A DNA stretch of 61,992 nucleotides from an uncultured Gammaproteobacteria bacterium. Lineage in GTDB: Bacteria; Patescibacteriota; Microgenomatia; Levybacterales; UBA12049. Positions 1 to 56,262 of this stretch are shown one piece after another. How positions within the stretch are numbered: the stretch's first letter is position 1; each line of letters opens with the position of its first letter. The stretch lies in contig CAZEJU010000002.1 in NCBI GenBank assembly GCA_964512695.1, positions 1 to 61,992 on the forward strand. The letters are read 5' to 3'. A model generated the notes under the pieces. It saw only the letters and a program-made list of their open reading frames with translations, was not told the origin of the DNA and did not search any database. The position numbers and the translations under genes were made by a program.

Positions 1-1005
<1,005 letters not shown>

Positions 1006-1740: not shown

Positions 1741-4700
1741 TTAATCTCCTTCTTGGGATGAAAGTTCACGCAGGAAAAGATTCATGTCAAAGAGATCTAC
1801 TTTCCCATCATCAGTTAAATCGGTTTTTTGTTTTTTCGCTTCCTCAGTACAGTTACGTGGACCTTCCAAATCCGCATAACAGTCAAGAATCATATTATAA
1901 TCTAAAATGTTAATTTTATTATCTTGTACTTGACTTGTATCACCTGTTATATCCCCAGTTACTAAAGATGCCTCAGCATTAACTTCACTACCATTTGCAA
2001 CCTGAAGCCCATTTATTCTTTTCTTTAAACTTTGATTTGACCTAACTTTTAATGCATATGATCCCGCAGGTAATGTTCCCGCATCTATTTTACCCGTAAA
2101 GTTTCCGTCAGTACTATTAAAGGTAACTGTGCCTTCTTTCGTTGTCACTAACTGTTCGCTACTATTATAAACTTCAAACGTAATTGTACGCTGAGATCTA
2201 AGCGGAGTCATATTACCGCCTCTACCAGGAGTAACATTATCCCCAGCTTTTCCTATACCGTGATGAAGAAGTTTAAAGTTAAAAGCAACGTTTCCTGGAG
2301 TTAACGTATTCGTGGGTGCAGGGGTATTTGTAGCACTCGGTGGATCTGTCGGATCTGGATTGGGATCTTCTGTAGGTTCCGGCCGTTCAGTTACGTTAAT
2401 AGCAAGCGGTGCGGATTCTCCCAAATTATTTTGTAGGGCTGTGTCACTAAATGCGATAGCTTTAAAGTCATACCTTCCTTCACTAGCCGATGCTAAGTCA
2501 ACTCCTACCGAACTAAATGTATATGTTCTTATATTATTGGCAGTTGTAGAGGTACTCGTACATGTTTTGCCTGCACTTCCCATATTAATAAATTCATTTG
2601 CAGGCTCTCTACCTTCCTTCCTGTAATATATTTGAATACATCTCACTCCATCGGTATAAGTAGTAGGAATCGTAACAGTTGTTTTTAATAGGAAACGATC
2701 ACCTATATAGAAATCTGTCTTACTTCTACCAGATAAATCTGAAGATGCGAGAGACACTGTTGCGATAGCATTCACAGTTAATGGAATTGGTTCTTCATCC
2801 ACAAAATCATCGTGGCCACTAATAAATAGTTGAGCCTTTATATCTGTATGCTGACCCGCAGTTACAGCAGAACCTGACCATGAACAAGTTATAGGCGATG
2901 TATATACCCCTGCAGATACCTCTTTCCGTTCACAACCCGGGATTGCTGTTCCACCTTTTAAAAACTTCACATAGCCCGCGCTATTCTTACTCTTATATAC
3001 ATGCACAGTTAGCGTGATAGGTCCATTAATAATATGACCAGTCGCAGGGGTTCTATTAACTAGTGTTGCTCCACCTATAAGAATATTTACAGAATCATCA
3101 TCCAGCAACTCATTATTTCTGTAGACTTCTGCGATTATTTTATAGGGGCCTGGTCCACCACTAGTAGTAGTGGGACTCCAGTTTTCAGTATACGTAGTAG
3201 GGGGATTACTCGATGGTACAGTAAACTCTTTAATAATAGTAGGCTGTCCTAAACGTAAGTTCTGATATTTAAAAGCAATAACCATTCCCGCAGTAACGTT
3301 CTGAACATTCGCTTCGATAGTAATACTGCTATCATAATTCTGTTCGTTCAATGGCCTTGAAAGAGTAATAGTGGCTGCTCCTGGGGGGGTTGCTGTCTGA
3401 ACCGGGATATCTACGGTATCAGAAACACCAGTATAAGTCGAACCCGAATACACCTTTGCAGTAATTGTATATGTTCCTGCAGTTCGCCCCTCCGTGTCCC
3501 AAGAAACAGGGAAATTGCCCGCAGTATTACTGGAAGATCCAATATCTTGACCATTACTGCCTAGACTCCAACTATACCGAACGCTAGAATCCGCAGGAAG
3601 ACTTCCTGTAAGCACATTTGTCGTTAACGCTACATCATTAGGTACAGTAATCGTTCCCGATGGAGAACGTTGAATGTCAATAGTCAATGGAGAAGGTGAT
3701 CCTACCGCATTAACTTGTAACGATACAGCAGCGGAAACGGCGGCTTCACTAACAGGAATACCAGAGAATAGTTTGGCAACTATAGCATGCGTTCCAGCAG
3801 TTGCGTTGGTCCATGAACATGAGTATGGACTGGTATTATCTTCACATAAAACATCAGATGTTCCTTCTTTGTAAAATTTTACTGTACCAGTATAAACTGG
3901 ACTGTTAAATTCAACTGTGGCATTTAGTGTTACTTGATTCGCTGTTTGAGGACCTACAGTCGTATTTACGATGCGCGGAACGAATAATTGGACAGGATCG
4001 GAAGTTTGTATTTCAGATACCCCCCCTACTTGTATTGTCTCTTTCGCGGTTATGACGTGTACCCCTGCGGAAACATTACTCCACTGGCATGACGGAGTCG
4101 TAGGGGTGGTCGCTGTACAACGAGAAGAAGTTCCTTCCATAAATTGAACTTCTGTGATTGTTCCTTCCACGGGTTGAACCAATGTCGCGGAAAAAGTAAC
4201 GTTGGTACCAGCTTTTATTACGAAATTTGAGATAGGTGTAGCTATAGTTATAAAAGGATTCGCGGATATAACAACTCTTACCCAAGGGCTAGCAGCGTCG
4301 TTTTGCTGTTGTCCATTAATAAACGGCACTGCTTTATATTCAAACGTCCCACCGGCTGATTCAGTACTTCCTACTAACGGATGCCGTAAGCGAATCGTAT
4401 TTGGTGCAGTAGAAGAATTGCTGGTCCCAATATTCATCTCTCCTGTTGCTGTTTTTCTAAAAAAAATTGCACCGGTCACACTTTGACTACTAGATAAGTT
4501 TCTCACGGTAGCATCCATAGTTAGCCAATCTCCAGACCGTGCATTTCGAGGGGTAACATTTAACGTTGTCGCAGGTTGTAAGTTAGCCACCTGAATCGTC
4601 CTTTCTGAAGAGAATGGCCATGTGTTCGTAACTTCAGTGGTAGATCTAAAAGCCCGTGCATAGTATTTATGAGTTCCTGGCTGAAGCTCTCTGAGAATAA

Positions 4701-14052: not shown

Positions 14053-16599
14053 TTATACTACGCTCTTTTTCAACCTTAGAGAATTTATAACAACGGATAC
14101 AGAACTAAATGCCATTGCAGCTCCAGCGAAAACTGGACTTAAAAGAATACTGTAAAAAGGATATAAAATACCAGCTGCAAGAGGAATTCCGATAATGTTA
14201 TAAATAAATGCCCAGAAAAGATTTTGTTTTACAGTTCTCATTGTCAATTTTGAAATACGAATAGCATGTGAAACTTTTTGAATATCACCTTTTAAAATAG
14301 TTAATTGAGCAACACCAATAGCGACATCTGTTCCAGTACTCATAGCAATTCCTATATCAGCAGTAGCTAAAGCAGGTGCATCATTGACACCATCCCCTAC
14401 CATCGCGACGAGATTGCGTCGTTCTGAATTTCCAATTTCCAATTTCCAATTTCTAGTCGATTTGACATTTGACATCTTTAATTTTTCAACAATCTCTGCT
14501 TTCCCATCAGGCAATACTTCTGCATATACTTCATCAATACCAACTTTTTCAGCAATATATTTTGCTGTGTTTTTATCATCTCCAGTTACCATAAGAACTT
14601 TTATGCCTTTTTTATGAAGTTCGTCAACCGCTTGTTTTGCATTTTTTTTAACAGTATCCGCAATAAATACAGAACCTAAAAAATTATTTCCATCAGTTAA
14701 AAAGATCGGTGTTTTCCCTGTTTTTGTATATGATGTAATTTCGTCATTATCTATAGCTATCCCTAATTCTTTCATGTATGTCATATTTCCTGCGAAATAT
14801 ACTTTCTTTTCAATAGTTCCCGTAACACCTTTCCCTTGAACAATACGAAAATCTGTGACATCTGATAATGAGATGTTTTCTTCTTGTGCTTTTAGTAATA
14901 TTGCCTGCGCTAAAGGATGTTCTGATCCTTTCTCAAGAGACGCTAATATTTGTAATAAACTTTGTTCACTTTTTATTTTTGAATCGTAATCTTGACTTTT
15001 AACTTTTGAGTTTTGAGTTTTGATAATATCAGTTACAACAGCTCTCCCCGTTGTTATCGTTCCAGTTTTATCCACCACTACCGTCGTAACATCACGTAAT
15101 TTTTCCAAACTTGCAGCATCTTTCACGAGAATTCCCAGCTCTGCTGCTTTACCCACGCCGACAATAATTGCAGTCGGTGTTGCTAAGCCTAATGCACACG
15201 GACAGGCGATAACTAATACTCCAACAAAACTTGTTAAACCAAGTGTTAAAGCATCAGTAAACGGTATGAATTGTATCCCAACTACCAACCAAACAATAAA
15301 AGTGGCAAATGCCATAAACATCACAACGGGGACGAACACAGCTGAAACTTGGTCAGCCAAACGTTCAATAGGGGCTTTGGAGTCTTGGGCATTTTCTACC
15401 ATCTGAACAATATGCGCGAGCAATGTATCTTTTCCTATTTTCGTTGCTTCTATGATCAAGACACTTTGTTGATTAATCGTACCACCCACAACTGCATTAC
15501 CAACTGTTTTATCTACTGGAATCGGCTCTCCAGTTACCATCGATTCATCAATAGATGAATCCCCCTCAATAATTTTCCCATCGGTTGGTATTTTACTACC
15601 GGGCTTAACTATTAAAACATCTCCCACTTCCACTTGCTCTATTAGCAACTCAACTTCCTTATATATTTCACCTTTTTTATATTCTTGAATCGTAAATCTT
15701 GAATCATGAATCGATTTTAATACCAATGCAGTTTTTGCTTGCAGCTGTATAAGTTTTTCCAACGCTTCTCCAGTTTTTCTTTTAGATGCAGCCTCTAGAT
15801 ATTTACCGAAAAGTATAAATCCAATAACGACAATCGTTACATCATAATATAACGCTTCAGATAAGCCGAGATTCTCTGCAGTTTGTGGAAAAAAAAGAAT
15901 AAATGAAGAATAAAGATATGAAGTTAATGTTCCCATTCCCACTAGTGTATCCATACTTGCTTTTCGCACTTTGAGAAACCGTAAAAATGCGTCAACAAAC
16001 AGTCTACCAGGCATAAAAAGAACAAAAGTAGCGATGAAAAATAAATGCATTTGATAAAACTTCATCGGAATTGGAAACGCTGGAAGCTCTGGAAGGAACT
16101 GAGAACTAACTTCCCACATCATTGCAAAAAACACAAAAATTGCTAAAGGAAAAACGAACATTGCTTTCTCTTTTTCTTTTTGTAGCTCAGCTTCTTTCGG
16201 TGGTTGGGTATGAAAAAAGTGATCCACCTCTCCATTATGCATCGAGCGATGTATTACCGCTTGCATGACGAAACCATCCGGCATCAACTGTGGTTTTTGT
16301 TTGCTTTCAACGTCCTTGTACTTTATTCTTGAATCTTGAATCCTGAATCCTGGATCTACTTCCTCTAAGGAATACCCATACGATTCAAGCTTTTTATTCA
16401 TTTCGTCAACGGAAATTTTAGAAGGATCAAATGTAATCTTCGCTTTTTCTGTAGCAAAGTTAACGCTACAAGCGGAAATACCAGGAAGTTTATTTAGAGT
16501 ACGCTCAATGTTAGCTTTGCAACTTGCACAATGCATTCCTTGCACAGGAAACGTATCAGTAACAAATTGTTCTGTATTGTCTTTGTGTTCTTTGTTCAT
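14053..16599 (-). CDS. copA: Copper-translocating P1B-type ATPase
   Basis: N-terminal HMA ([11 protein letters not shown]), [19 protein letters not shown] and [14 protein letters not shown] motifs. It contains four low-complexity inserts encoded by 7-nt repeats. Confidence 0.95.
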
Positions 16600-24359: not shown

Positions 24360-25838
24360 TTAAAACTCAAGACTGAGTTGATTCGTAGGAACTTCGCTTC
24401 GCTCTTTTACACCTTCTCCTTCTTGCCAAATATGAACAGTACCATATTCTCCATCATACCCAGGGTCTACTGTAAGAACGCCCCTTCTCACTCTCTCTAC
24501 TGTTTGAGCGATTCTCTCTGCTTGTGTTGCTCCCGACTGACGGGCTATTGTTTCTATATCTTCTAACCTTGTCTTTAAAAGCAGATTAATTTCTGAATCT
24601 GTTTTACACATTTCTGTATATAACTTTTTAATTTTTATACTGGTTGGTGTCATCTCTAAGGCTGCTGCGAGGATTTGTTCTAGCCTTACTAACTTTACGA
24701 AAGGAGGATGTGATCGGGAAATATCAGTATGCCACTTAACCCCACTTTCACTAATCTTTTCTGTATAGTTTTTTGCAAATTCTGCACCTGCAAGTTGTTC
24801 AATTCTGACTGCTACTCCTTCTGTTAGTTCGCGTTTACAGACAGAACATACGCTTCCCTTTTCATCGGAATCTTTTGGTGACAATGAAATCTTACATGCT
24901 CTATGACCCGAAAAATGATACTTCCCCTCTTCAGGATAGAATTCGATAGTATAGATAATTCGGTTATCTGTTTTCGTTTTTCGGTTTTCGGCTTCCTGTT
25001 TTTCAATTTTCGGTTCTTCAGTTCGTTCAACTGATTGACCGATGACCGACTGACTGCCAGCTGAAAACCGACCACTGAAAACAGATAACTGACTCGGACG
25101 CATAATCGCCTCTCTTAACTTTGAATATGTTGGAAGACTACCTTCCAATTCGAATACCGTTGCCTCGCGTGCCATATTCGCAGGACTATGTGCATCAGAG
25201 AAAGACAATATCGAACGATTCGCTAATTCACCTATGCGCCAATTCATCTCGGGATCACTGGAAATACCTGTTTCTATTCCGTAAATATACCGACTGAACT
25301 CACCAAACGCTTCATCTAAACTATCAAATCCTGATTTTGATCCGTAAACTCCAAAATGTGGCGTCCATACATGACAAGGGATTAGCATACACCGTTCATC
25401 AATTCCAAGTATAAGTTCGAATAAATCTTTCGACGATAAACCAATAATGGGTCTTCCATCTGCATTGAGGTTTGCTCCACGTTTAGCTAATGTCTCATTA
25501 ATTTTCTGGGCAATCTGAAGATTTGGTGAGAAAATGAGATTATGAATTCTCCGTAACTTACCTCCTTGTTTATAAATACTCGCAATCTCAGTTGAAAGAA
25601 GAAAATATACCTCTTTCTCCTTATTTTCCCCGTCTTCTCTTAATCTGAAGATCCCTTCTTCTGCTTCTTCCAGCTGTGCGCTTATTTCTTTAAACCATAC
25701 AGGATGTGTAAAATCAGATGCTGAAAGAATGTCTAAACCTTTTTGTCTGGCATATTCAGCCATTACAGGAAGCGTCATTTGCTGAGAAACGGCGCGTGAG
25801 TATTTCGAATGAAGGTGCAAATCGGCTACATATTGCAT
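24360..25838 (-). CDS. Endonuclease Q-like PHP-domain nuclease
   Basis: Collinear with archaeal EndoQ as I recall it: DLHLHSKYSRAVS, RIHNLIF, GRPIIGL, HVWTPHFG, SFSDAHSP, then the zinc finger region GKYHFSGHRAC...CSVCKRELTEGV and a C-terminal DPGYDGEYG. It carries a ~44-aa repeat-encoded insert. Confidence 0.75.
   Translation of the reverse strand: MQYVADLHLHSKYSRAVSQQMTLPVMAEYARQKGLDILSASDFTHPVWFKEISAQLEEAEEGIFRLREDGENKEKEVYFLLSTEIASIYKQGGKLRRIHNLIFSPNLQIAQKINETLAKRGANLNADGRPIIGLSSKDLFELILGIDERCMLIPCHVWTPHFGVYGSKSGFDSLDEAFGEFSRYIYGIETGISSDPEMNWRIGELANRSILSFSDAHSPANMAREATVFELEGSLPTYSKLREAIMRPSQLSVFSGRFSAGSQSVIGQSVERTEEPKIEKQEAENRKTKTDNRIIYTIEFYPEEGKYHFSGHRACKISLSPKDSDEKGSVCSVCKRELTEGVAVRIEQLAGAEFAKNYTEKISESGVKWHTDISRSHPPFVKLVRLEQILAAALEMTPTSIKIKKLYTEMCKTDSEINLLLKTRLEDIETIARQSGATQAERIAQTVERVRRGVLTVDPGYDGEYGTVHIWQEGEGVKERSEVPTNQLSLEF
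24961..25093. mobile_element. RPE/MITE-like palindromic element inserted in-frame in the EndoQ gene
   Basis: The terminal inverted repeat CGGTTATCTGTTTTC (24961-24975) matches the reverse complement of GAAAACAGATAACTG (25077-25091) at 14/15 positions. The interior consists of TTTTCGG and CTGACCG unit runs around a CAGTT...AACTG core. Homologous copies are at 39750-39872 and 53655-53764. Confidence 0.7.
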
Positions 25839-27717: not shown

Positions 27718-29496
<1,779 letters not shown>

Positions 29497-29508: not shown

Positions 29509-29590
29509 AGTCCTAAGTTACAAGTTCTAAGTCCTAAAATAAATTTACACTCTGTGACTTAAAACTCATGACTTATAACTTGTGACTTCC
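29509..29590. repeat. Inverted pair of heptamer runs (AAGTYAY family)
   Basis: agtcctaagttacaagttctaagtcctaaaat faces gtgacttaaaactcatgacttataacttgtgacttcc. Confidence 0.8.
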
Positions 29591-29930
29591 AATGATGTTT
29601 TTACAATCTTAGTTAATATATTTATAATTTCTTCGTTCTCTATTAGTAAGTTTTCTAATTTTTCTTTTATATCAGGATTAAGCTCTTTTATCAAACGTAA
29701 CCAATATCTAGTCTCTCTTGCTTCCTTCTTTGCTATATTCATGCAATATGCAAAATCTTTCTTTGAGTTCGTCCCCAGTGCTTCTTCAATATTTGCACCA
29801 ATTGAAGTCGACGATCGAATTATCTGTTTTGAAACAATTACATTTCGAACGTTTTTGATAAAAGTTTTGTTAGCTTAATAACACTCAGAGAAAACTCAAA
29901 AGATCTGTTAGCAATAATTGATTCTTTCAT
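29566..29930 (-). pseudogene. Four-helix-bundle protein (PF05635 / Avd-like, '23S rRNA IVS protein'), frameshifted
   Basis: My hand translation gives MKESIIANRSFEFSLSVIKLTKLLSK... stopping at 29838-29840. A different frame continues ...VRNVIVSKQIIRSSTSIGANIEEALGTNSKKDFAYCMNIAKKEARETRYWLRLI... to the stop at 29566-29568. The junction is at an A5 run (29852-29856). It is absent from the ORF track because neither piece reaches 60 aa. Confidence 0.65.
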
Positions 29931-29969
29931 GCAGACTTATAACTTACGACTTGTAACTTAGGACTTCTA

Positions 29970-31049
29970 CTACTTCATAATGTATTTCGCTGCTTTTGTC
30001 GTCCCTGTTTTCTTCACTAATCCAGACGTAATTAAACCTTTTAATTCATTTAACACAGTATCTTCGGAAACAAACTGAAATAATTGTTTAAAAGCACTAT
30101 TTTGTAAATAACCAGTTTCCTGAATATATTCAATAATTTTTAGCTGTCTTTCAGATAATAGCAATGGCTTACCACCAAGTTTTGATTTTAATTTACCATC
30201 AACGGAAATCTTCTCGACTTTTTCTTTAATTTTGTTCAGTTCTATAGCGAGCCCTTCTGTATAATATTCAAGCCATTCTGTTTGATTACCATCGTTTTTA
30301 GTGACTGACTGTAAAGCAGCATAATATGCTCCTGCATCTCTATCGAAATATTCCTCTAATGAAAAAAACCGACGAATATCATATCCTTGCTGAAAGAGGA
30401 TAAGTGTCGATATTGCACGAGCAACCCGTCCATTACCATCTATAAAAGGATGAATTCTGACTATTTCATAATGAACAACTCCGCTCTTCAAAACAGGATG
30501 AATATCCTGATCTGTCGACTTTTCCACGAATCCAAGAAGTTCGCGTATTTGGAATGGGACTGATATAGCTGGGGGTGGACGGAAAGTTATTTCTCCTGTT
30601 TGACTGTTCTTTATTACAACTTGTGTTTTCCTATACTCCCCACACCTTTCAATTGCAAGAATTTTTTCAACTGTGAGTTTATGAACATATTTTACTAATT
30701 CCTCATCTACTTGTAACTTAGGACTTCTAACTTGCAACTGTTCAACATATTCCATTACCTTTCGATAATTAATTACTTCCTGCACATCTCGCTGTCTTGC
30801 TACGATCTCTTGTCCCATAAGCACTTTCTCTGCTTGTGTTAAATTTAATTCATTTCCTTCGACATGTGTTCCATGATGCACTGTACGGACGAGAGCATCT
30901 TGCTGGAATTTCTTTTCATAATATGGAAGAAGAGGCGCATGATCTATGACCTCTTTCGAAGCTTCAATAATACCGATGTTTCGAAGGATGGTGTTGGTGA
31001 TTGTATAGGCTGGTTTATACATAAGTAATAAGTGATAAGCAACAAACAA
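29970..31049 (-). CDS. Fic family protein (AMPylase-type) with a C-terminal wHTH
   Basis: HPFIDGNGRVAR core motif with a Fic_N-like N-terminal region. The likely true start is the Met at 31022. A heptamer block lies at 30717-30750. Confidence 0.88.
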   Translation of the reverse strand: MFVAYHLLLMYKPAYTITNTILRNIGIIEASKEVIDHAPLLPYYEKKFQQDALVRTVHHGTHVEGNELNLTQAEKVLMGQEIVARQRDVQEVINYRKVMEYVEQLQVRSPKLQVDEELVKYVHKLTVEKILAIERCGEYRKTQVVIKNSQTGEITFRPPPAISVPFQIRELLGFVEKSTDQDIHPVLKSGVVHYEIVRIHPFIDGNGRVARAISTLILFQQGYDIRRFFSLEEYFDRDAGAYYAALQSVTKNDGNQTEWLEYYTEGLAIELNKIKEKVEKISVDGKLKSKLGGKPLLLSERQLKIIEYIQETGYLQNSAFKQLFQFVSEDTVLNELKGLITSGLVKKTGTTKAAKYIMK

Positions 31050-31079
31050 TAAGAAGAAATATGCATCTATAGTTATTAC

Positions 31080-31499
31080 TTATCTCTTCTCGCTTTTTTG
31101 TGATTGATGAAGTCGCCATATAATTCTACCGCATTCTTCCTTCATTTGTAGCAACTTATCATAATCAGGTTGTTTAATCAAACCATGCTGCTTAGAGAAG
31201 TAAAGTAAATATTCAACTTCAGCTAAAGAACCAAGTGCTATAGAAAGAAAATGCCGGAATTCATTTTTATTAATACGCGCATATCCTTCGATTATATTTA
31301 AAGGGACTGACAAAGCAGCCCGCTTTAACTGAGATGTTATACCATATAACTCTTCTTGTGGAAATAGTAAAGTAGCAACATATATAGCAGAAGCAAGTTG
31401 ATCAGATTTTTGCCATGCGATCAACTTCTTGTAGCCCTGTACATACACAATACTTATTTCTTGTTGCTTATCGCTGATCACTAGATTCAATAGTCGCAT
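31080..31499 (-). CDS. Four-helix-bundle protein (PF05635 / Avd-like)
   Basis: YKKLIAWQKS...SQLKRAALSVPLNIIEGYAR.NKNEFRHFLSIALGSLAEVEYLL, the family signature. The probable start is the GTG at 31448, because the first ~17 codons are repeat sequence. Confidence 0.8.
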   Translation of the reverse strand: MRLLNLVISDKQQEISIVYVQGYKKLIAWQKSDQLASAIYVATLLFPQEELYGITSQLKRAALSVPLNIIEGYARINKNEFRHFLSIALGSLAEVEYLLYFSKQHGLIKQPDYDKLLQMKEECGRIIWRLHQSQKSEKR

Positions 31500-31845: not shown

Positions 31846-32793
31846 CACTTCTTTCATAACAAAAGGAATTTCATTTGCTAGATCTGACGAATTAAATGTA
31901 TACCCAACTTTTCGGAATAAGCTATCCCCTGCTTTTTTATTTAAATAGCTTCCTACACATGCACTTACATAGAGTTCATTCTTACATGCTAACGCTGCAA
32001 GAAGTCCAGCAAGCACATCACCAGTTCCGCCTTTCGTCATACCTGCATTTCCTCCAGCAATGGAGATACATGCTGAAGGGGAGCAAATAACATCCTCCTC
32101 CCCTTTTAGCAAAATAATACAGTTATATTCTCTTGCGATAAGAGATAAGTGATAAGCAATAAGGTCTAAATCTATTTTGTTTTTCATATCGCTTATTGCT
32201 TGTTGCTTATCGCTAAACAGCATTTCAAACTCTCTCTGATGCGGTGTGATAACAACGTTCCCATTCAACTGTTTCAACCACTCAGGATCCATCATCTGTA
32301 AACTCCCGCCATCGATAACCCATTTTTTATGAGAATACTTATCGAGCAAATATTTTGTTAACCAATATGTCTGCTCCCCCTCATCAGACAATTCATTAAT
32401 GACTTTTAGGTCATAAGTTTTAAGTCCTGAGTTATAAGTATTTTTTTTATTTAGTACTTGTGACTTAGGACTTAAGACTCCTTCACTTCTCATCAATCCC
32501 GGTCCTATGAGTATACAGTCAGCTTCTTCAGCATAATCATCTATCTTCTCTCTAGGAATAACGATACCATTACGAAATTCTGTTTTTGCTTGTCGAACAA
32601 TTTCGTTATTTTCAGGAACTGAAGCATAAAATACCATGTCGACAATTTTACTTGCGATAGTTAGAGCCCATAAGGAAGCAGCGTGAAATAAATGAGAACC
32701 GCCAACGAGAAGCAACTTCCCATTCTGCCCTTTATGAGAATCTGAAGGTGGAATATAGAGATTCTTTAGTAATTGGGGATCAAATTCCTGCAT
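31840..32793 (-). CDS. nnrD: ADP-dependent NAD(P)H-hydrate dehydratase (YjeF C-terminal type)
   Basis: HKGQNGKLLLVGGS ... GGNAGMTKGGTGDVLAGL. Two hairpin-forming repeat inserts lie within the CDS. Confidence 0.85.
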   Translation of the reverse strand: MQEFDPQLLKNLYIPPSDSHKGQNGKLLLVGGSHLFHAASLWALTIASKIVDMVFYASVPENNEIVRQAKTEFRNGIVIPREKIDDYAEEADCILIGPGLMRSEGVLSPKSQVLNKKNTYNSGLKTYDLKVINELSDEGEQTYWLTKYLLDKYSHKKWVIDGGSLQMMDPEWLKQLNGNVVITPHQREFEMLFSDKQQAISDMKNKIDLDLIAYHLSLIAREYNCIILLKGEEDVICSPSACISIAGGNAGMTKGGTGDVLAGLLAALACKNELYVSACVGSYLNKKAGDSLFRKVGYTFNSSDLANEIPFVMKEVL

Positions 32794-37256: not shown

Positions 37257-38397
37257 TATTTTTTATTTTTTCATTAATAAAACTTCTCATTTCTTTCATA
37301 AACCGTTCTTTTGAAAACTTCTCAGCCTGCTCTTTACAAACCTTCGGATCAAATTTCATAGTTTCAAATTTTTTAATCGCTTTAGTTAAACTTTCCACAG
37401 TCGGTTCACTAAAAAACACACCTGTTTTTCCATCGATAACTGTTTCTTTATATCCTCCACCATAATATGCGATAACTGGTGTACCACAGAACATGGATTC
37501 CACGGGTGTAATTCCGAAATCTTCATCAGTCGCAAGCGCGAGAAATGCTTTTGCATGTGTATATAAATCAATCAACTCTTCATCAGAAACTCTTCCTAAA
37601 AATTCTATATTCTCATTTGCAGTCTCGGATATTTTCTGCGCCACAGAAGAATATCCAGAAGATACCCCAGCAATTTTTAGTTTGATACCGAGTTTATTCG
37701 CCGCCTCGACAGCTAATTGCAATCCTTTTCCACCTACTAAACGCGCAACGATAAAGTAATAATCCTTCTTGTGATTTTCCATTTTCGATTTTCCATTTTC
37801 CATTAGCAAGTTCACAGGTGGATAAATTACTGTGGATTCTCGGCGATAGAATTTTGCTATACGTTTCTTAACTTCTTCTGAGTTAGCGATAAAATAATGT
37901 ACTCGTTGTGCCGCCCGGAAATCATACATTCTCATGAAGTGTCCTATGATTATTCCGTACAGTTTTATTGGCCAATACCGCTGCCATTCTACAGATGTCG
38001 TATATCCATATAACCACCGAGGGGGCGTATGACAGTAACAAACCTCAATCGGACGTGTAACTTGTGACTTGTAACTTGTAACTTCCTTTACTACCCCTTT
38101 CGTAATATACCAAGAGGCTGAAGTGATGACGATATCGTACCCTGAAAAATCAAAGCTCTTCCAAATGAGCGGAGCTAAAAAACGAAGTGGACTATGAAGT
38201 TTAGTGGGAAAAAAAGGAATCTTATGAACCCACGAAGTAATAATCCGTCGATGTTTAAACCGATCATATGCTGGTGAATCCTTTTTATAAAACGAGGTAT
38301 AAAGAGGAGCATCAGGAAACATTTCGCACAGCGCTTCCAGAACTCTCTCTGCTCCCCCGTATTCTTTTAGATAATCATGGACTAATGCTACTTTCAT
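37249..38397 (-). CDS. Glycosyltransferase family 4 (GT-B fold)
   Basis: EDFGITPVESMFCGTPVIA, the E-x7-E region. Two heptamer inserts are present. Confidence 0.78.
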   Translation of the reverse strand: MKVALVHDYLKEYGGAERVLEALCEMFPDAPLYTSFYKKDSPAYDRFKHRRIITSWVHKIPFFPTKLHSPLRFLAPLIWKSFDFSGYDIVITSASWYITKGVVKEVTSYKSQVTRPIEVCYCHTPPRWLYGYTTSVEWQRYWPIKLYGIIIGHFMRMYDFRAAQRVHYFIANSEEVKKRIAKFYRRESTVIYPPVNLLMENGKSKMENHKKDYYFIVARLVGGKGLQLAVEAANKLGIKLKIAGVSSGYSSVAQKISETANENIEFLGRVSDEELIDLYTHAKAFLALATDEDFGITPVESMFCGTPVIAYYGGGYKETVIDGKTGVFFSEPTVESLTKAIKKFETMKFDPKVCKEQAEKFSKERFMKEMRSFINEKIKNNA

Positions 38398-39194: not shown

Positions 39195-40232
39195 TTATAT
39201 GTCCATTAATCCTAATTGCTGGCCTTTCTTCTTTTCTTCAATCTCTTTAAATAACGGGTTAAAGCGTTTTAATAAACTATTAAACCCATACTGCTCGAAC
39301 ACTTCCAAAGCTCCTTTTATATTCAATTCAGACGTTTTACAGGTTTCCAGCTCACAAGTAATAGGAACATCTCGTAAAATAGTTGCTAGCTTTTTGGCAA
39401 GCGCTGCCTGTTCAGCATCTGTCGCTAATTTCTCAGCGACTTTCGGCGGTAATTCGCCAATGCGTTCATACAGCGCTTCAAAAGTACCAAAATCTTTTAG
39501 TAAACTTGCAGCAGTTTTCGGACCTATACCTGTTACACCTGGATAACCATCTGAAGGATCACCGATTAACGCTTTATAATCGACAAACTGCGATGGTTTT
39601 ACTCCATACTTCTCCTCTACTTTTTTTTCATCATACAAAACAGTTTCTTTCACACCAACGACCGGCATCAACACCTTTGTATTTGTGTTCACAAGCTGTA
39701 ACAAGTCCCTATCCCCTGTCAGTATTATTGTTTCGATATGCTCAGTAATCGGTTTTCTGTTTTCAGTTTTCTGTATCTTGTTTACCAGTTTTCTGTCTAT
39801 CCGATTCTGACTGTTCAGTTGATCAACTGGCTGACCGGTCGCTGACGACTGATCACTAGCAACCGACAACTGCACTTGCGAAGCAAGTGTCCCTATCACA
39901 TCATCAGCTTCAAAACCTTCCACTGCAAATATAGAGATATTCATTTTTTCTAAAGCTTCCCGAAGCATCTCGAATTGAACCGCTAAATCATCTTCCATTT
40001 TAGGACGATGCGCATGGTAGCCAGCATACATTGCTTGTCTGTAAGTAGGAGCTGAGATATCGAAACTGACGATAACATATTCTGGTTGTAGATCTGAAAT
40101 GACAGTAAAAAACATACTAAAAAATCCATACATGGCATTAATTACAGTACCGTCTGGAGCTGTAAGAGGTGGAAGCGCATGATACGCACGATGTACAATC
40201 GCATTACCATCAATTAAAAGAAGCTTAGCCAT
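39195..40232 (-). CDS. 5'-3' exonuclease (stand-alone Pol I N-terminal / FEN-like domain)
   Basis: LLLIDGNAIVHRAYHA, FEADDVIGTLA, TGDRDLLQLV and an H3TH region GVTGIGPKTA. There is a ~41-aa repeat-element insert between FEADD..LA and TGDRD. Confidence 0.88.
   Translation of the reverse strand: MAKLLLIDGNAIVHRAYHALPPLTAPDGTVINAMYGFFSMFFTVISDLQPEYVIVSFDISAPTYRQAMYAGYHAHRPKMEDDLAVQFEMLREALEKMNISIFAVEGFEADDVIGTLASQVQLSVASDQSSATGQPVDQLNSQNRIDRKLVNKIQKTENRKPITEHIETIILTGDRDLLQLVNTNTKVLMPVVGVKETVLYDEKKVEEKYGVKPSQFVDYKALIGDPSDGYPGVTGIGPKTAASLLKDFGTFEALYERIGELPPKVAEKLATDAEQAALAKKLATILRDVPITCELETCKTSELNIKGALEVFEQYGFNSLLKRFNPLFKEIEEKKKGQQLGLMDI
39750..39872. mobile_element. RPE/MITE-like element, second in-frame copy (in the 5'-3' exonuclease gene)
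   Basis: The left end CGGTTTTCTGTTTTC is 13/15 identical to the EndoQ-copy left end. The core is the palindrome CAGTTGATCAACTG followed by CTGACCG/CTGACGA runs. The span is 123 nt, or 41 codons. Confidence 0.65.
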
Positions 40233-40610
40233 GTAGGTATTGTAACATGTGGTTTAGTTCTGTGTTAGAGGTTAGTAGTAAGGTGTTAATTCTTAGAAGT
40301 TATTTAGGAGGTCCGAGTTACGAAAACAGTTTTAATATAAGCTGCTTCAAATTCCGAAGCTCTCATAAAATGTATATAAACACCTACATCCAGAGCTTTT
40401 GATTGGGCCAAAAGCTGATGTAGGCTTTTACATACGTTCTACATTAATCTCCTATCGCTACTAACAATTTTCTTCGCTGGAGAAGCAATCTCTTTCCTTG
40501 TCAACTGACCACAAAAGGAATCCAGAATCTTGAAGTCGCTTCATCTCGATCACCTGGCTGTCCCCTTATTAACAAGCAGTACGCAATAATAATTACTTAA
40601 AGCTTAAAAT

Positions 40611-40666
40611 TTGTAACTCATAACTCATAACTCATAACTTATAACTTGTAACTTATTACTTCTTAT
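40611..40666. repeat. Tandem heptamer array (AACTCAT/AACTTAT/AACTTGT), about 8 units
   Basis: ttgtaactcataactcataactcataacttataacttgtaacttattacttcttat, directly upstream of the promoter at 40677. Confidence 0.9.
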
Positions 40667-40676
40667 ATATTGCCTC

Positions 40677-51349: not shown

Positions 51350-51437
51350 AGTTAAATTTTTAATTTATAATTTTAAATTTGAAATCAATTTTTAATATTC
51401 TAATATTTAGATTTGAATAAAAATTAAAAATTTTAAA

Positions 51438-52259
51438 CTACAAATTAACCCGTTCCACCTGTATTGTAGTTCCTAGTAATTTTTTTGCAACTGTCGAAAA
51501 TGTTTCTACGCTTCCTGATGTAGAGAATGCATGCTGTGCTTGTTCTGCTTCCACTAATTGGTTATTCGATGCCAATACTCTTCGTGCATGACGAGCGATA
51601 GCACTACTTGGCTCAAGCAACACAACCTGTTCTCCGAGTATGTGCTGTATTTCCATAGCCATAAAAGGATAATGCGTACACCCTAGCGCGAGCGTATCAA
51701 CGTCATTTTGTATAAAAGGAATTAACACATCGCGAAGAATATGATTAACTTCTTTGCCATAAGTTTGTCCATCTTCTATAAGGGGAACAAGTTTATCTGT
51801 GCCTATGTTTATAACTGTACATTTCTGAGCAAATTTTTGTATCAACTGTTTTTGGTAGCTACTCTCTGCTGTTCTTACTGTAGACAGTATCCCTATGCGC
51901 ATATTTCTAGTTTTTTCGGCTGCTGTTTTAACGACAGGTACAGTTCCTATTATAGGGATCATCGGATAATCGTTGCGTAGTCTATCAAGACTCGACACTG
52001 TAATAGTATTACAAGCAACGATAATCAGCTTCACATTTCTTTGAAGCAAAAATATAACGAGACGCTTTGCCAAGCTATAAATTTCTTGAGGAGACTTTGT
52101 TCCATAAGGAATATTTTGGGAGTCAGCGATATAGAGAGTGGACTCGTGAGGTAACTCTTTTACTACTTCTTTCCAAACAGAAAGTCCACCAACACCAGAA
52201 TCGACAATACCAATGGGACGGGGAATTGAGAATTGAGAGTTGAAAGTTGAGAGTTGCAT
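51438..52259 (-). CDS. murI: Glutamate racemase
   Basis: IGIVDSGVGGLSV, VACNT and LGCTHYP catalytic Cys motifs. The first ~12 codons are heptamer-repeat sequence. Confidence 0.9.
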   Translation of the reverse strand: MQLSTFNSQFSIPRPIGIVDSGVGGLSVWKEVVKELPHESTLYIADSQNIPYGTKSPQEIYSLAKRLVIFLLQRNVKLIIVACNTITVSSLDRLRNDYPMIPIIGTVPVVKTAAEKTRNMRIGILSTVRTAESSYQKQLIQKFAQKCTVINIGTDKLVPLIEDGQTYGKEVNHILRDVLIPFIQNDVDTLALGCTHYPFMAMEIQHILGEQVVLLEPSSAIARHARRVLASNNQLVEAEQAQHAFSTSGSVETFSTVAKKLLGTTIQVERVNL

Positions 52260-52303
52260 AGATAGTTTTTAATTCTCAATTCTCCATTCTCAACTCTCAA
52301 TTC
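52223..52303. repeat. Inverted pair of GAGTTGA/GAATTGA heptamer runs bracketing the murI start codon
   Basis: The left arm 52223-52256 is coding and the right arm 52271-52303 is 5' UTR. The ATG (52257-52259) sits in the 14-nt loop. Confidence 0.85.
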
Positions 52304-52309
52304 TTTTTG

Positions 52310-52383
52310 TACCAGGGGCGGGGATCGAACCCGCGACCTCAGCGTTATGAATGCTGTGCTCTAACCAGCTGAGCTACCCTGGC
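52310..52383 (-). tRNA. tRNA with CAU anticodon (Met elongator or Ile2/lysidine type)
   Basis: The reverse complement is GCCAGGGTAGCTCAGCTGGTTAGAGCACAGCATTCATAACGCTGAGGTCGCGGGTTCGATCCCCGCCCCTGGTA. It gives a cloverleaf with anticodon loop TTCATAA. It lacks the three G:C pairs of initiator tRNAs. CCA is not encoded. Confidence 0.88.
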
Positions 52384-53546: not shown

Positions 53547-53654
53547 CTCCTATCGTAATCTCAACTATAAGTTTTCCGGATAATAAACAAATGAAAATCA
53601 AGTAAGAAACACATAAGAATCCCATCCATAGCCTCAAACCAGTGGCAATTATTA

Positions 53655-53764
53655 AGTTATCAGAAATGGGTTGCTTGTTCTGTTAATCAGATTGTGAATA
53701 AAACTGGCAAACTGAAAACAGACGAACTATAATCTGAAAATTGAGAACAGAGAACAGATAACTA
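53655..53764. mobile_element. RPE/MITE-like element, intergenic copy upstream of truB
   Basis: The ends are AGTTATCAG ... GAACAGATAACT. The interior CTGAAAACAGACGAAC and GAGAACAGAGAACAG runs are related to the EndoQ and exonuclease copies. Confidence 0.55.
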
Positions 53765-53774
53765 GGTAACACAT

Positions 53775-54596
53775 ATGCGCTACATAATTCCGATCTATAA
53801 ACCATTGGGAATGACACCGTTTGAAGTTATAAATATATTTAAAGACCGTCGCCCCATATATAAAAACGAAACGATTAGTTACGCTGGCAGGCTTGACCCT
53901 ATGGCTGAAGGACTCCTTCTTTTACTCGTAGGTGATGAAAATAAGAAAAGGAAAAATTATGAGGATCTACAAAAAACCTATGAATTCCGCGTGCTTCTTG
54001 GAATAGAAACAGACACCTACGATATACTAGGGAAAATTGTCCATGTTCCAAGTTCCATTTTCCATTTAGATCAAGCTTTTAAAGAAAACCAAGTATTTAT
54101 GTCTTTGGAAAATGGAAAATTGCAAATGGAAAATCTCCTGCATTCTTTTACTGGTAAAAAAATGCAGGCCTACCCTCCCTACTCTTCAAAAACAGTCAGT
54201 GGCAAACCTCTGTACTGGTGGGCTCGCCAGAATCGTTTAGATGAGATCGAAACTCCGAGAAAAGAAATTGAAATATATTCGTTAGAGTTACTCGCTAAAG
54301 AAAAAATTATGATTCAAGAATTACGATTCCTTATTCAAGAAAGAATCAGTAAAGTTAATGGGGATTTTAGACAAAAAGAGATTCTCCGTGAATGGAATAA
54401 GTTCTTTAACGATATAACACTTAAACAGTATAACAATTTTCCTGTAATGCATTGCAGAGTAACGTGTTCAAGCGGGACCTATGTTCGTTCACTCTCGCAT
54501 GAGATAGGTAAACAATTAGGTGCTAGTGGAATCGCTTTACAAATCATCCGGACAAAAGTTGGAGAATATACAATCGAAGAAGCTTTCAGACTATAG
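53775..54596 (+). CDS. truB: tRNA pseudouridine(55) synthase
   Basis: YAGRLDPMAEGLLLLLVG (catalytic Asp) and the TruB core. There is a heptamer-encoded insert (LENGKLQMEN). Confidence 0.88.
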   Translation: MRYIIPIYKPLGMTPFEVINIFKDRRPIYKNETISYAGRLDPMAEGLLLLLVGDENKKRKNYEDLQKTYEFRVLLGIETDTYDILGKIVHVPSSIFHLDQAFKENQVFMSLENGKLQMENLLHSFTGKKMQAYPPYSSKTVSGKPLYWWARQNRLDEIETPRKEIEIYSLELLAKEKIMIQELRFLIQERISKVNGDFRQKEILREWNKFFNDITLKQYNNFPVMHCRVTCSSGTYVRSLSHEIGKQLGASGIALQIIRTKVGEYTIEEAFRL

Positions 54597-56189: not shown

Positions 56190-56262
56190 TAAAGCGTGAA
56201 GCGTAAAGCCTGAAACTCTATAGTATGTACTAAGTTTTACGTTTCAAGTTTTACGTTTTACG
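56190..56262. repeat. Inverted pair of GCGTAAA-family heptamer runs (hairpin) after msrA
   Basis: aaagcgtgaagcgtaaagcctgaaactc ... agttttacgtttcaagttttacgttttacg. Confidence 0.8.

Follow-up and report, generated by a model that had tools for sequence, protein, structure and literature searches.

Rickettsia palindromic elements (RPEs; Ogata et al. 2000 Science, 2002 Genome Res) are dispersed palindromes of ~100–150 bp, many of which lie in frame inside unrelated housekeeping genes and are translated (PMC10969869). The extra peptide segments are compatible with the protein fold, several families exist per lineage and no associated transposase is known (PMC10969869). The present analysis concerns a comparable insert in the gene for a stand-alone 5´-3´ exonuclease (FEN) of a Microgenomates bacterium of the Candidate Phyla Radiation (CPR). 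The gene lies in a stretch of 61,992 nucleotides (contig CAZEJU010000002.1, assembly GCA_964512695.1), which is referred to below as the window. A second copy of the same element interrupts the gene of an endonuclease Q family protein (EndoQ), a third stands between genes, and these copies and their relatives are designated family A. The FEN insert is probably a selfish, RPE-like and cargo-less derivative of a cassette of the intervening sequence (IVS) type, tolerated and translated in a permissive loop.

RPEs appear to be the closest analogue of family A, and at most an analogue, the two being likened by description and not by sequence. Like RPEs, family A is palindromic, 110–133 nt long and multi-copy (the window has three, metagenome loci 43), with a consensus hairpin of 33 pairs. 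It also lies in frame inside unrelated genes (FEN, EndoQ, GT1, ATP-grasp, Rho, L1, PBP, LeuRS, Obg and others) without disrupting them. Unlike RPEs, it has a CPR/Microgenomates host (going by the names of homologues), arms made of 7-nt units and a longer relative with a PF05635 gene, and the same protein loop holds different families in different lineages.

The IVSs with S23p genes, known from Coxiella, Leptospira and others, carry an open reading frame (ORF) for a PF05635 four-helix bundle, are regarded as selfish and show a sporadic distribution (PMC4990558). In the Coxiella 23S IVS, a stem of terminal inverted repeats is combined with the S23p ORF and with tandem heptamer repeats (GACAGAT), and the whole is excised by RNase III (PMC4990558). 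A similar long terminal stem around a PF05635 ORF is found in the cargo-bearing relatives (loci L140, L159, L182, L188, L192, L232 and L002, and positions 31024–31482 of the window). However, family-A copies occupy protein genes and spacers instead of helix 25 or 45 of 23S rRNA. The ORF is absent from the genic copies, which would have to be translated and not cut out by RNase III; since open reading frames are kept through them, they are expected to stay in the mRNA.

Direct repeats of the heptamer TAACTGA have been reported from Beggiatoaceae, Cyanobacteria and Bacteroidetes (MacGregor 2015), with LSVISYQ encoded in the reverse frame (PMC4679880). That paper makes no link to PF05635/IVS proteins or to in-frame protein inserts (PMC4679880). 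The family-A unit is nearly the same: the right arm ends in ...GAAAACTGATAACTGA, and TCAGTTA in the left arm gives ‘QLSV’, which is the reverse frame of LSVISYQ. The units are (A/T)AAAC(N)GA variants ending in GATAACTGA and form inverted arrays. As with TAACTGA, forward units create stops, some intergenic copies abut starts, and pure tandem arrays of the unit turn up in a pattern scan. Unlike the short direct arrays of TAACTGA, family A consists of two arrays arranged as an inverted repeat of ~130 nt, with conserved ends and an equally conserved, non-periodic centre. The cyanobacterial short tandemly repeated repetitive (STRR) sequences are also heptamers.

[quoted passage not shown] Family A shares these traits, but it lacks a target-site duplication and its longer relative lacks a recognisable transposase. 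No description of palindromic elements of this kind in CPR protein genes was found in the literature searched. Two points seem to be new: the link with IVS cassettes, and the way in which different families have repeatedly re-used the same protein loops.

Family-A copies in the window

The two host genes and the three family-A copies, with E values from nhmmer searches with the family profile, are the following:

39195..40232, minus strand: FEN host gene, stand-alone 5´-3´ exonuclease of 345 aa, with Pfam 5_3_exonuc_N (PF02739) and 5_3_exonuc (PF01367)
39742..39873, minus strand: degenerate copy of the family-A palindromic element, in frame inside the FEN gene (E 1e-30)
24360..25838, minus strand: EndoQ host gene, endonuclease Q family protein of 492 aa, whose homologues contain PF27218 and go by the name endonuclease Q / TIGR00375
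24960..25092, minus strand: well-preserved family-A copy, in frame inside the EndoQ gene (E 8e-31)
53653..53765, plus strand: intergenic family-A copy with stop codons, in the spacer before truB (E 1e-10)

The FEN copy was first noticed from the letters and reading frames of the DNA, as a second copy of the element in EndoQ. A global alignment confirms this homology: the two copies are 66% identical over 131 aligned columns, with a score of 76, where shuffles give 8.8 ± 4.5 and random genomic windows 6.4 ± 4.2 (z ~15–16), which is far above low-complexity background. Some details of the original prediction had to be amended. It placed the copy at 39750–39872 (123 nt), whereas the terminal repeats of the family give 39742–39873, one 7-nt unit further left, so that the copy is ~132 nt long and runs from CAGTTGTC to GATTACTG. 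Its left-end 15-mer matches the EndoQ copy at 14/15 positions and not, as stated, at 13/15. The shared orientation agrees with the lower score of the reverse alignment (35 versus 76), but it carries little information in a near-palindrome that reads T-rich and then A-rich on both strands. The perfect palindrome described at its centre, CAGTTGATCAACTG at 39816–39829, is indeed palindromic over 14 nt, but lies ~15 nt away from the symmetry centre of the element.

The three copies are preserved to different degrees. The FEN copy folds poorly (RNA fold z −1.4), keeps 27/33 of the consensus pairs and is the most decayed copy. The EndoQ copy has 64-nt arms that are 70% complementary as an inverted repeat, folds with −53.7 kcal/mol (z −7.5) and keeps 31/33 pairs. 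The intergenic copy carries GTTATC at 53656–61 and GATAAC at 53757–62 and ends 9 nt before the ATG of truB. In tblastn it reads ...KTDEL*SEN*EQRTDN*, with in-frame stops where the genic copies have sense codons. The 5-copy DNA profile detects the three window copies, plus one copy each in FEN or EndoQ genes of loci L001, L125 and L126.

Structure and distribution of family A

Family A is an imperfect palindrome of ~130 nt, with a left arm of TCNGTTNTC-type 7-nt units and a right arm of complementary GANAACNGA units. In an alignment of 19 copies, the outer arms read GTTATCN GTTYTCN GTTNTCN GTTGTCAGA and TCTGAAAACN GAAAACN GARAACN GATAAC, and the interior consists of an AT-rich spacer, inner arms and a short centre. 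The termini, YCN-GTTATCNGTTYTC ... GARAACNGATAAC-NGR (YCN-GTTATC ... GATAAC-NGR), are kept in 20/21 aligned copies as terminal inverted repeats. Six positions of each unit pair across the arms, while the seventh is a variable mismatch, and nearly all 33 pairs of the consensus hairpin are invariant. The 7-nt period is also seen in the self-identity of the analysed stretch, where 68 windows reach ≥80% at lag 7 and none at lags 3–6 or 8–12. The element is thus a dispersed hairpin repeat with conserved ends, as foreseen by the suggestion of a nucleic-acid module.

A DNA-pattern scan of metagenome contigs, unbiased for frame, yielded 43 near-full-length family-A palindromes, plus pure tandem arrays and short hairpins adjoining gene ends. 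About three quarters of these copies are intergenic and non-coding, and 32/43 contain a stop in all six frames. Between 9 and 11 of the 43 fall within long open frames; three of the open-frame copies occupy the 5´ margin of the open span and probably precede the true start. Six copies lie well inside coding sequences (CDSs), namely those of a GT1 glycosyltransferase, an ATP-grasp protein, FEN, Rho, ribosomal protein L1 and a PBP. In several cases, a single contig holds 2–3 copies. The intergenic copies occupy tight spacers, with 22/33 lying ≤40 nt from the upstream stop and 21/33 ≤40 nt from the downstream start.

This tight placement between genes would be expected if the hairpins were functional RNA or DNA structures of the host (bidirectional terminators, RNase III sites, or sites at which a factor that binds the 7-nt unit controls translation), with the genic copies regulating the FEN and EndoQ mRNAs. 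The copy that ends just before truB, the 7-nt-unit hairpins located beside a tRNA and several gene ends of the window, and the near invariance of 6/7 arm positions across very divergent genomes all agree with such a role. So do the proposal that TAACTGA repeats just upstream of starts are regulator binding sites (PMC4679880) and the use of classical IVS stems as RNase III substrates (PMC4990558). Nevertheless, this explanation is unlikely. No compensatory covariation was detected, the variable unit position pairing at or below shuffle expectation (e.g., 0/19 versus 5.4 expected); because the consensus pairs are nearly invariant and the variable position is non-complementary, this result is in itself evidence neither for nor against selection on structure. 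In 8/8 genic copies the coding-strand RNA folds more weakly than the antisense (mean −43.3 versus −51.7 kcal/mol), which argues against selection for an mRNA hairpin. Furthermore, the FEN copy folds hardly at all, the family-A element has no match in Rfam, and many orthologues are insert-free or hold an unrelated family at the site.

The same CAGTTNT / ANAACTG units recur in metagenome loci L133, L139, L148, L155 and L156 and in L135, L136, L143 and L152. They form short hairpins immediately behind stop codons, in contigs that have GC-rich flanks and are perhaps not of CPR origin. They also form long pure tandem arrays (AAAACTG/ATAACTG) that recall the TAACTGA repeats of cyanobacteria, Bacteroidetes and Beggiatoa. 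The pattern CTGAAAACMGANAACYGA, tried as a family probe in genome contigs, was rejected as unspecific, with random phyla among the matches listed.

PF05635 cassettes with 7-nt arms

The ends of family A are also found around a gene. In several metagenome loci, paired family-A ends 452–499 bp apart enclose a 124-aa ORF (MIKDVTDLEVY...IAEGF...REF.RFL..A.GS..E) that matches PF05635 (23S_rRNA_IVP). Half-element matches to the family-A profile (E 1e-7 to 4e-12) lie on both sides of the PF05635 ORF in L140, L159, L182, L188, L192 and L232. Cassettes with GTTTTCN-unit arms (L190, L193 and L127) likewise enclose PF05635 ORFs, one of which matches bAvd slightly below the cutoff. Longer elements with the same arms, examined in a search for a transposase-bearing parent, encode the 124-aa PF05635 protein alone.

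The association extends to a loop insert in L002, which carries the closest relative of the window FEN gene. Its FEN loop holds a hairpin of TTTCCAA units (2396–2475; fold z −6.8), and a PF05635 cassette (3004–3492) stands directly after the FEN stop codon, 530 nt downstream of that hairpin. The arms of the cassette are made of the same TTTCCAA units as the loop insert, with 90% direct identity and 78% complementarity. The FEN and EndoQ family-A copies of the window themselves lack a PF05635 ORF. Two cassettes are present elsewhere in the window:

31024..31482, minus strand: PF05635 cassette of another 7-nt family, with arms at 31024–31053 and 31453–31482 (83% complementary, 399 nt apart)
29509..29965, minus strand: second cassette, with a decayed PF05635-like gene and 7-nt-unit arms at 29509–29537 and 29937–29965 (86% complementary, 399 nt apart)

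The ORF at 31080–31499 matches PF05635 with an E value of 1.5e-33. The decayed cassette retains a 58-aa ORF fragment (...ETRYWLRLIKE...) and fills the spacer between the ligase and Fic genes, which measures 18 nt in the syntenic locus L125.

Re-use of the FEN and EndoQ loops

Comparison with solved 5´-nuclease domains of Pol I confirmed that the FEN ORF has ~42 extra residues between FEADDVIGTLA and TGDRDLLQLV, as had been predicted, and the insert peptide quoted at the time is the exact product of this ORF. In the PDB alignments, FEN residues 121→167 correspond to residues 141→146 of M. smegmatis Pol I (insert from ~121 to ~166), and Taq has 13 residues between ..SLA and TADKD at this site. 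EndoQ orthologues without the insert comprise 443–447 aa, compared with 492 aa in the window. An AlphaFold model of FEN, computed with the orthologue alignment, has a mean predicted local distance difference test (pLDDT) score of 89.9, with core blocks at 96–98 and insert blocks at 71, 52, 51 and 56. These values fit a tolerated, flexible surface excursion.

A survey of the loops in the 120 best homologues of each gene revealed a patchy distribution. Loop lengths range from 13 to 69 residues in FEN and from 7 to 55 in EndoQ, and ~40–60% of the orthologues lack a long insert; the comparison with insert-free orthologues, proposed as a check at the outset, finds many without any insert. Four clusters of insert peptides are common to both loops: A (8 in FEN and 12 in EndoQ), B (8 and 8), C (6 and 2) and F (1 and 2). 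There are therefore at least four interchangeable insert families in the same FEN and EndoQ loops across Microgenomates. In all families, the insert is bounded at the same codon slot. In the EndoQ gene of L247, whose CDS is 76% identical to that of the window at the nucleotide level, a palindrome of GAAGATN units lies exactly between the MRP and NRIIY codons. On a neighbour-joining (NJ) tree of FEN hosts, the insert labels require 67 Fitch changes versus 74.9 for shuffled labels, and the 8 members of family A account for 8 changes. Judged from such sequence trees, the insert families seem to be scattered nearly at random on the host trees.

It could be argued that these inserts are ancient and vertically inherited, and that gene conversion from other hairpins or cassettes has homogenised them in each genome (concerted evolution) without repeated new insertions. 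The common codon slot is in line with this proposal. In addition, one family is found in both genes in the window (A+A), in contig SRR32799299_30077 (L125 and L126; A+A) and in a 526-kb contig (E+E), and L125 and L126 are syntenic with the window. Concerted evolution is, however, a rather improbable explanation: in many orthologues the loop is short and shows no sign of an insert, the ends of family A are sharp and identical at intergenic sites and in unrelated genes, and family A is read in different 3´ frames even among FEN orthologues.

A second hypervariable loop of EndoQ (columns 101–180 of the orthologue alignment) has recurrent low-complexity inserts in many orthologues, e.g., SEIRNPKSETNSNDQNS. 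The window EndoQ has no insert in this loop (residues ~66–75 of the protein).

Reading frame of the genic copies

The original prediction held that both genic copies are read in the same frame and that this reflects selection for a translatable frame or a functional peptide. The codon phases of the EndoQ and FEN copies were mapped onto their DNA alignment. The phase is shared over the first 49 columns, in the 5´ arm (CAG TTA TCT GTT versus CAG TTG TCG GTT), but a shift of one base separates the two copies over the remaining 82. The 3´ ends accordingly differ, with G AAA ACA GAT AAC CGA (KTDNR) in EndoQ and GA AAA CCG ATT ACT GA (KPITE) in FEN. The FEN orthologue P0110 has family A in the KTDNR frame, whereas others (e.g., P0035) have it in the KPITE frame. 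The parallel ‘ENRK’ peptide in the two inserts is only apparent: it is encoded by non-homologous 7-nt units, and arises because 3 × 7 nt = 21 nt = 7 codons, which gives the same cyclic peptide in every frame.

All genic copies are free of stops in the frame used. The six metagenome copies well inside CDSs, a DNA sample unbiased for frame, are all read in the QLSV 5´ frame, as is the EndoQ copy of the window. In the intergenic copies, the stops per frame amount to 2.3, 2.0 and 2.7 across the three frames; these similar counts indicate that the 5´-frame bias is not inherent to the element. The conserved terminal GATAAC shuts one of the three 3´ frames (GA TAA C), in agreement with the two 3´ frames seen. 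The appearance of a single frame is due to purifying selection on the host genes and to the periodicity by which three 7-nt units make seven amino acids, not to a selected peptide. Selection for a translatable frame holds in the former sense. The retained frame points to host-gene purifying selection, plus some bias for one 5´ frame, rather than the mark of a functional peptide.

Two further points concern the genic copies as a group. Their division into separate coding-competent and intergenic sublineages was rejected, as only one alignment column differs, C versus T, turning TAG into CAG. No orientation bias is claimed for them, since the profile was built from coding-strand copies and the test would be circular.

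A peptide-profile search against 1.84 billion representative proteins located the full insert in at least 40 proteins of many lengths, including LeuRS, ArgRS, Obg, RadA-like, DnaB, DNA ligase, RNase HII, WecG, ComEC and others. With the 44-aa insert peptide profile, a homologous-protein search returned short low-complexity proteins alone. The consensus QLSVLGSQLSD..ENRKQKTDNR, present in more than 30 unrelated proteins, the uniform 5´ frame and the persistence of the inserts in orthologues only ~55% identical could speak for a selected peptide module, a flexible linker or interaction tag (Ser/Gln-rich followed by Lys/Glu/Asn-rich) recruited repeatedly into CPR housekeeping proteins. Such a module is very improbable. 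The peptide search is able to detect one frame only, the 3´ half is read in two frames even within FEN, and the insert has a low pLDDT. Moreover, ~40–60% of the orthologues do without a long insert, families with unrelated peptides are interchangeable in the same slot, and three quarters of the copies are non-coding. The claim of a functional peptide is not sustained.

Finally, the notion that the resemblance is low-complexity background, produced independently in situ by slippage and fold-back, has next to nothing in its favour beyond the short periodic units of both inserts and the ‘ENRK’ artefact; it was rejected for family A in view of the alignment z of ~15–16 against shuffles and random genomic windows and of the non-periodic parts and termini shared with dozens of copies at unrelated loci.

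Proposed origin and spread of the inserts

A selfish palindromic element, derived from an IVS-type cassette and tolerated in a permissive loop, probably accounts best for the FEN insert. Family-A copies would have spread without target-site duplication into short intergenic spacers. Occasionally a copy would land in coding DNA, where it would survive only in a structurally permissive surface loop and in a stop-free frame, presumably close to neutral for the host. The FEN copy would be transcribed and translated as a low-complexity, probably disordered loop of ~43 residues, placed at the turn that joins the helix following the EADD metal-binding motif to the strand running towards TGDRD, and would have decayed since its insertion.

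Several observations weigh against this account. There is no transposase, integrase or other known mobility gene in the window, and we know of no demonstrated mobility function for PF05635. Near-identical copies and empty-site polymorphism between close strains were not found, and the window copies are only 66% identical. No target-site duplication was detected in 21 copies, in which direct repeats of 2–8 nt at offsets 0 to 5 do not exceed chance. The conserved synteny of L125/L126 with the window would also agree with both inserts having descended vertically in those two genomes, and the tree scatter comes from NJ trees of single proteins of ~300–450 aa, which are weak at deep nodes. The direction of the cargo relationship is unproven, and PF05635 genes might instead have landed in pre-existing hairpins. 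Lastly, the uniform 5´ frame of the six CDS copies goes beyond stop avoidance, and because stop codons alone fail to explain it, some peptide-level selection exists.

A broader proposal can be put forward tentatively, and is itself rather doubtful. PF05635 four-helix-bundle (bAvd-like) genes and 7-nt-unit arms may constitute one class of hairpin-ended mobile cassettes, in which the protein would bind the 7-nt repeats and promote their spread or maintenance. Derivatives without the cargo would settle in rRNA genes, in intergenic spacers and, in frame, in surface loops of essential CPR proteins, with the same slots being re-used by successive families. If true, this class would unite the 23S IVSs, the TAACTGA/STRR heptamer repeats and the RPE-like coding palindromes. 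The arms common to short palindromes and PF05635 cassettes offer a testable origin for the former and a candidate role for a widespread family of unknown function.

In-frame palindromic selfish DNA in essential genes, so far mostly a curiosity of Rickettsia, would now extend to CPR/Microgenomates, with several families and dozens of host proteins. Such inserts would account for some of the differences in length among conserved CPR proteins, with consequences for annotation, alignment and phylogeny. They also indicate that the FEN and EndoQ loops tolerate inserts of ~45 residues.

Other 7-nt-unit arrays and features of the window

Strong periodicity of 7 nt occurs throughout the window, e.g., at 1094–1146, 31027–31098, 32416–32479, 40594–40672, 51355–51446, 52223–52303 and 56190–56260. 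Many spacers hold hairpins with arms of tandem 7-nt units, which belong to several families (ACTTNTA, TTCCATT, TTGAATC, TCTCAAC and others). The hairpin at 52223–52303 has 30-nt arms of GAGAGTT/AACTCTC units (83% complementary), lies directly downstream of the tRNA at 52310–52383 (minus strand) and overlaps the annotated start of an Asp/Glu racemase ORF; termination or processing may be its role.

Arrays of this type are also present in other coding regions. The truB ORF (53775–54596, plus strand) contains an in-frame 7-nt-unit hairpin at 54036–54134 (TTCCATT/GGAAAAT), with 29-nt arms that are 79% complementary. It encodes ...SLENGKLQMEN..., and the TruB_N Pfam match is ~18 residues longer than the profile. 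Short arrays lie at 27843–27895 in the DNA ligase gene, at 37768–37811 in a glycosyltransferase gene, and at 14424–14463 and 16311–16360 in the gene of a P-type ATPase. A (GAAAATG)n array immediately precedes the conserved LRFPR motif of the ATP-dependent ligase and is read as KMKMENGKWKME, and the array at 14428–14460 matches the TTTCCAA family of the L002 FEN loop.

The 23S rRNA gene (1–989, minus strand) has, in its 5´ part, an insertion of ~115 nt at ~284–398, in a helix loop at model position ~583, for which no membership of a 7-nt family was shown. This helix is helix 25, a classical IVS site. Each 2-kb window shows a negative GC skew, and the minus strand carries most of the 54 called genes, which suggests that the stretch lies on one replichore with a strong strand bias.

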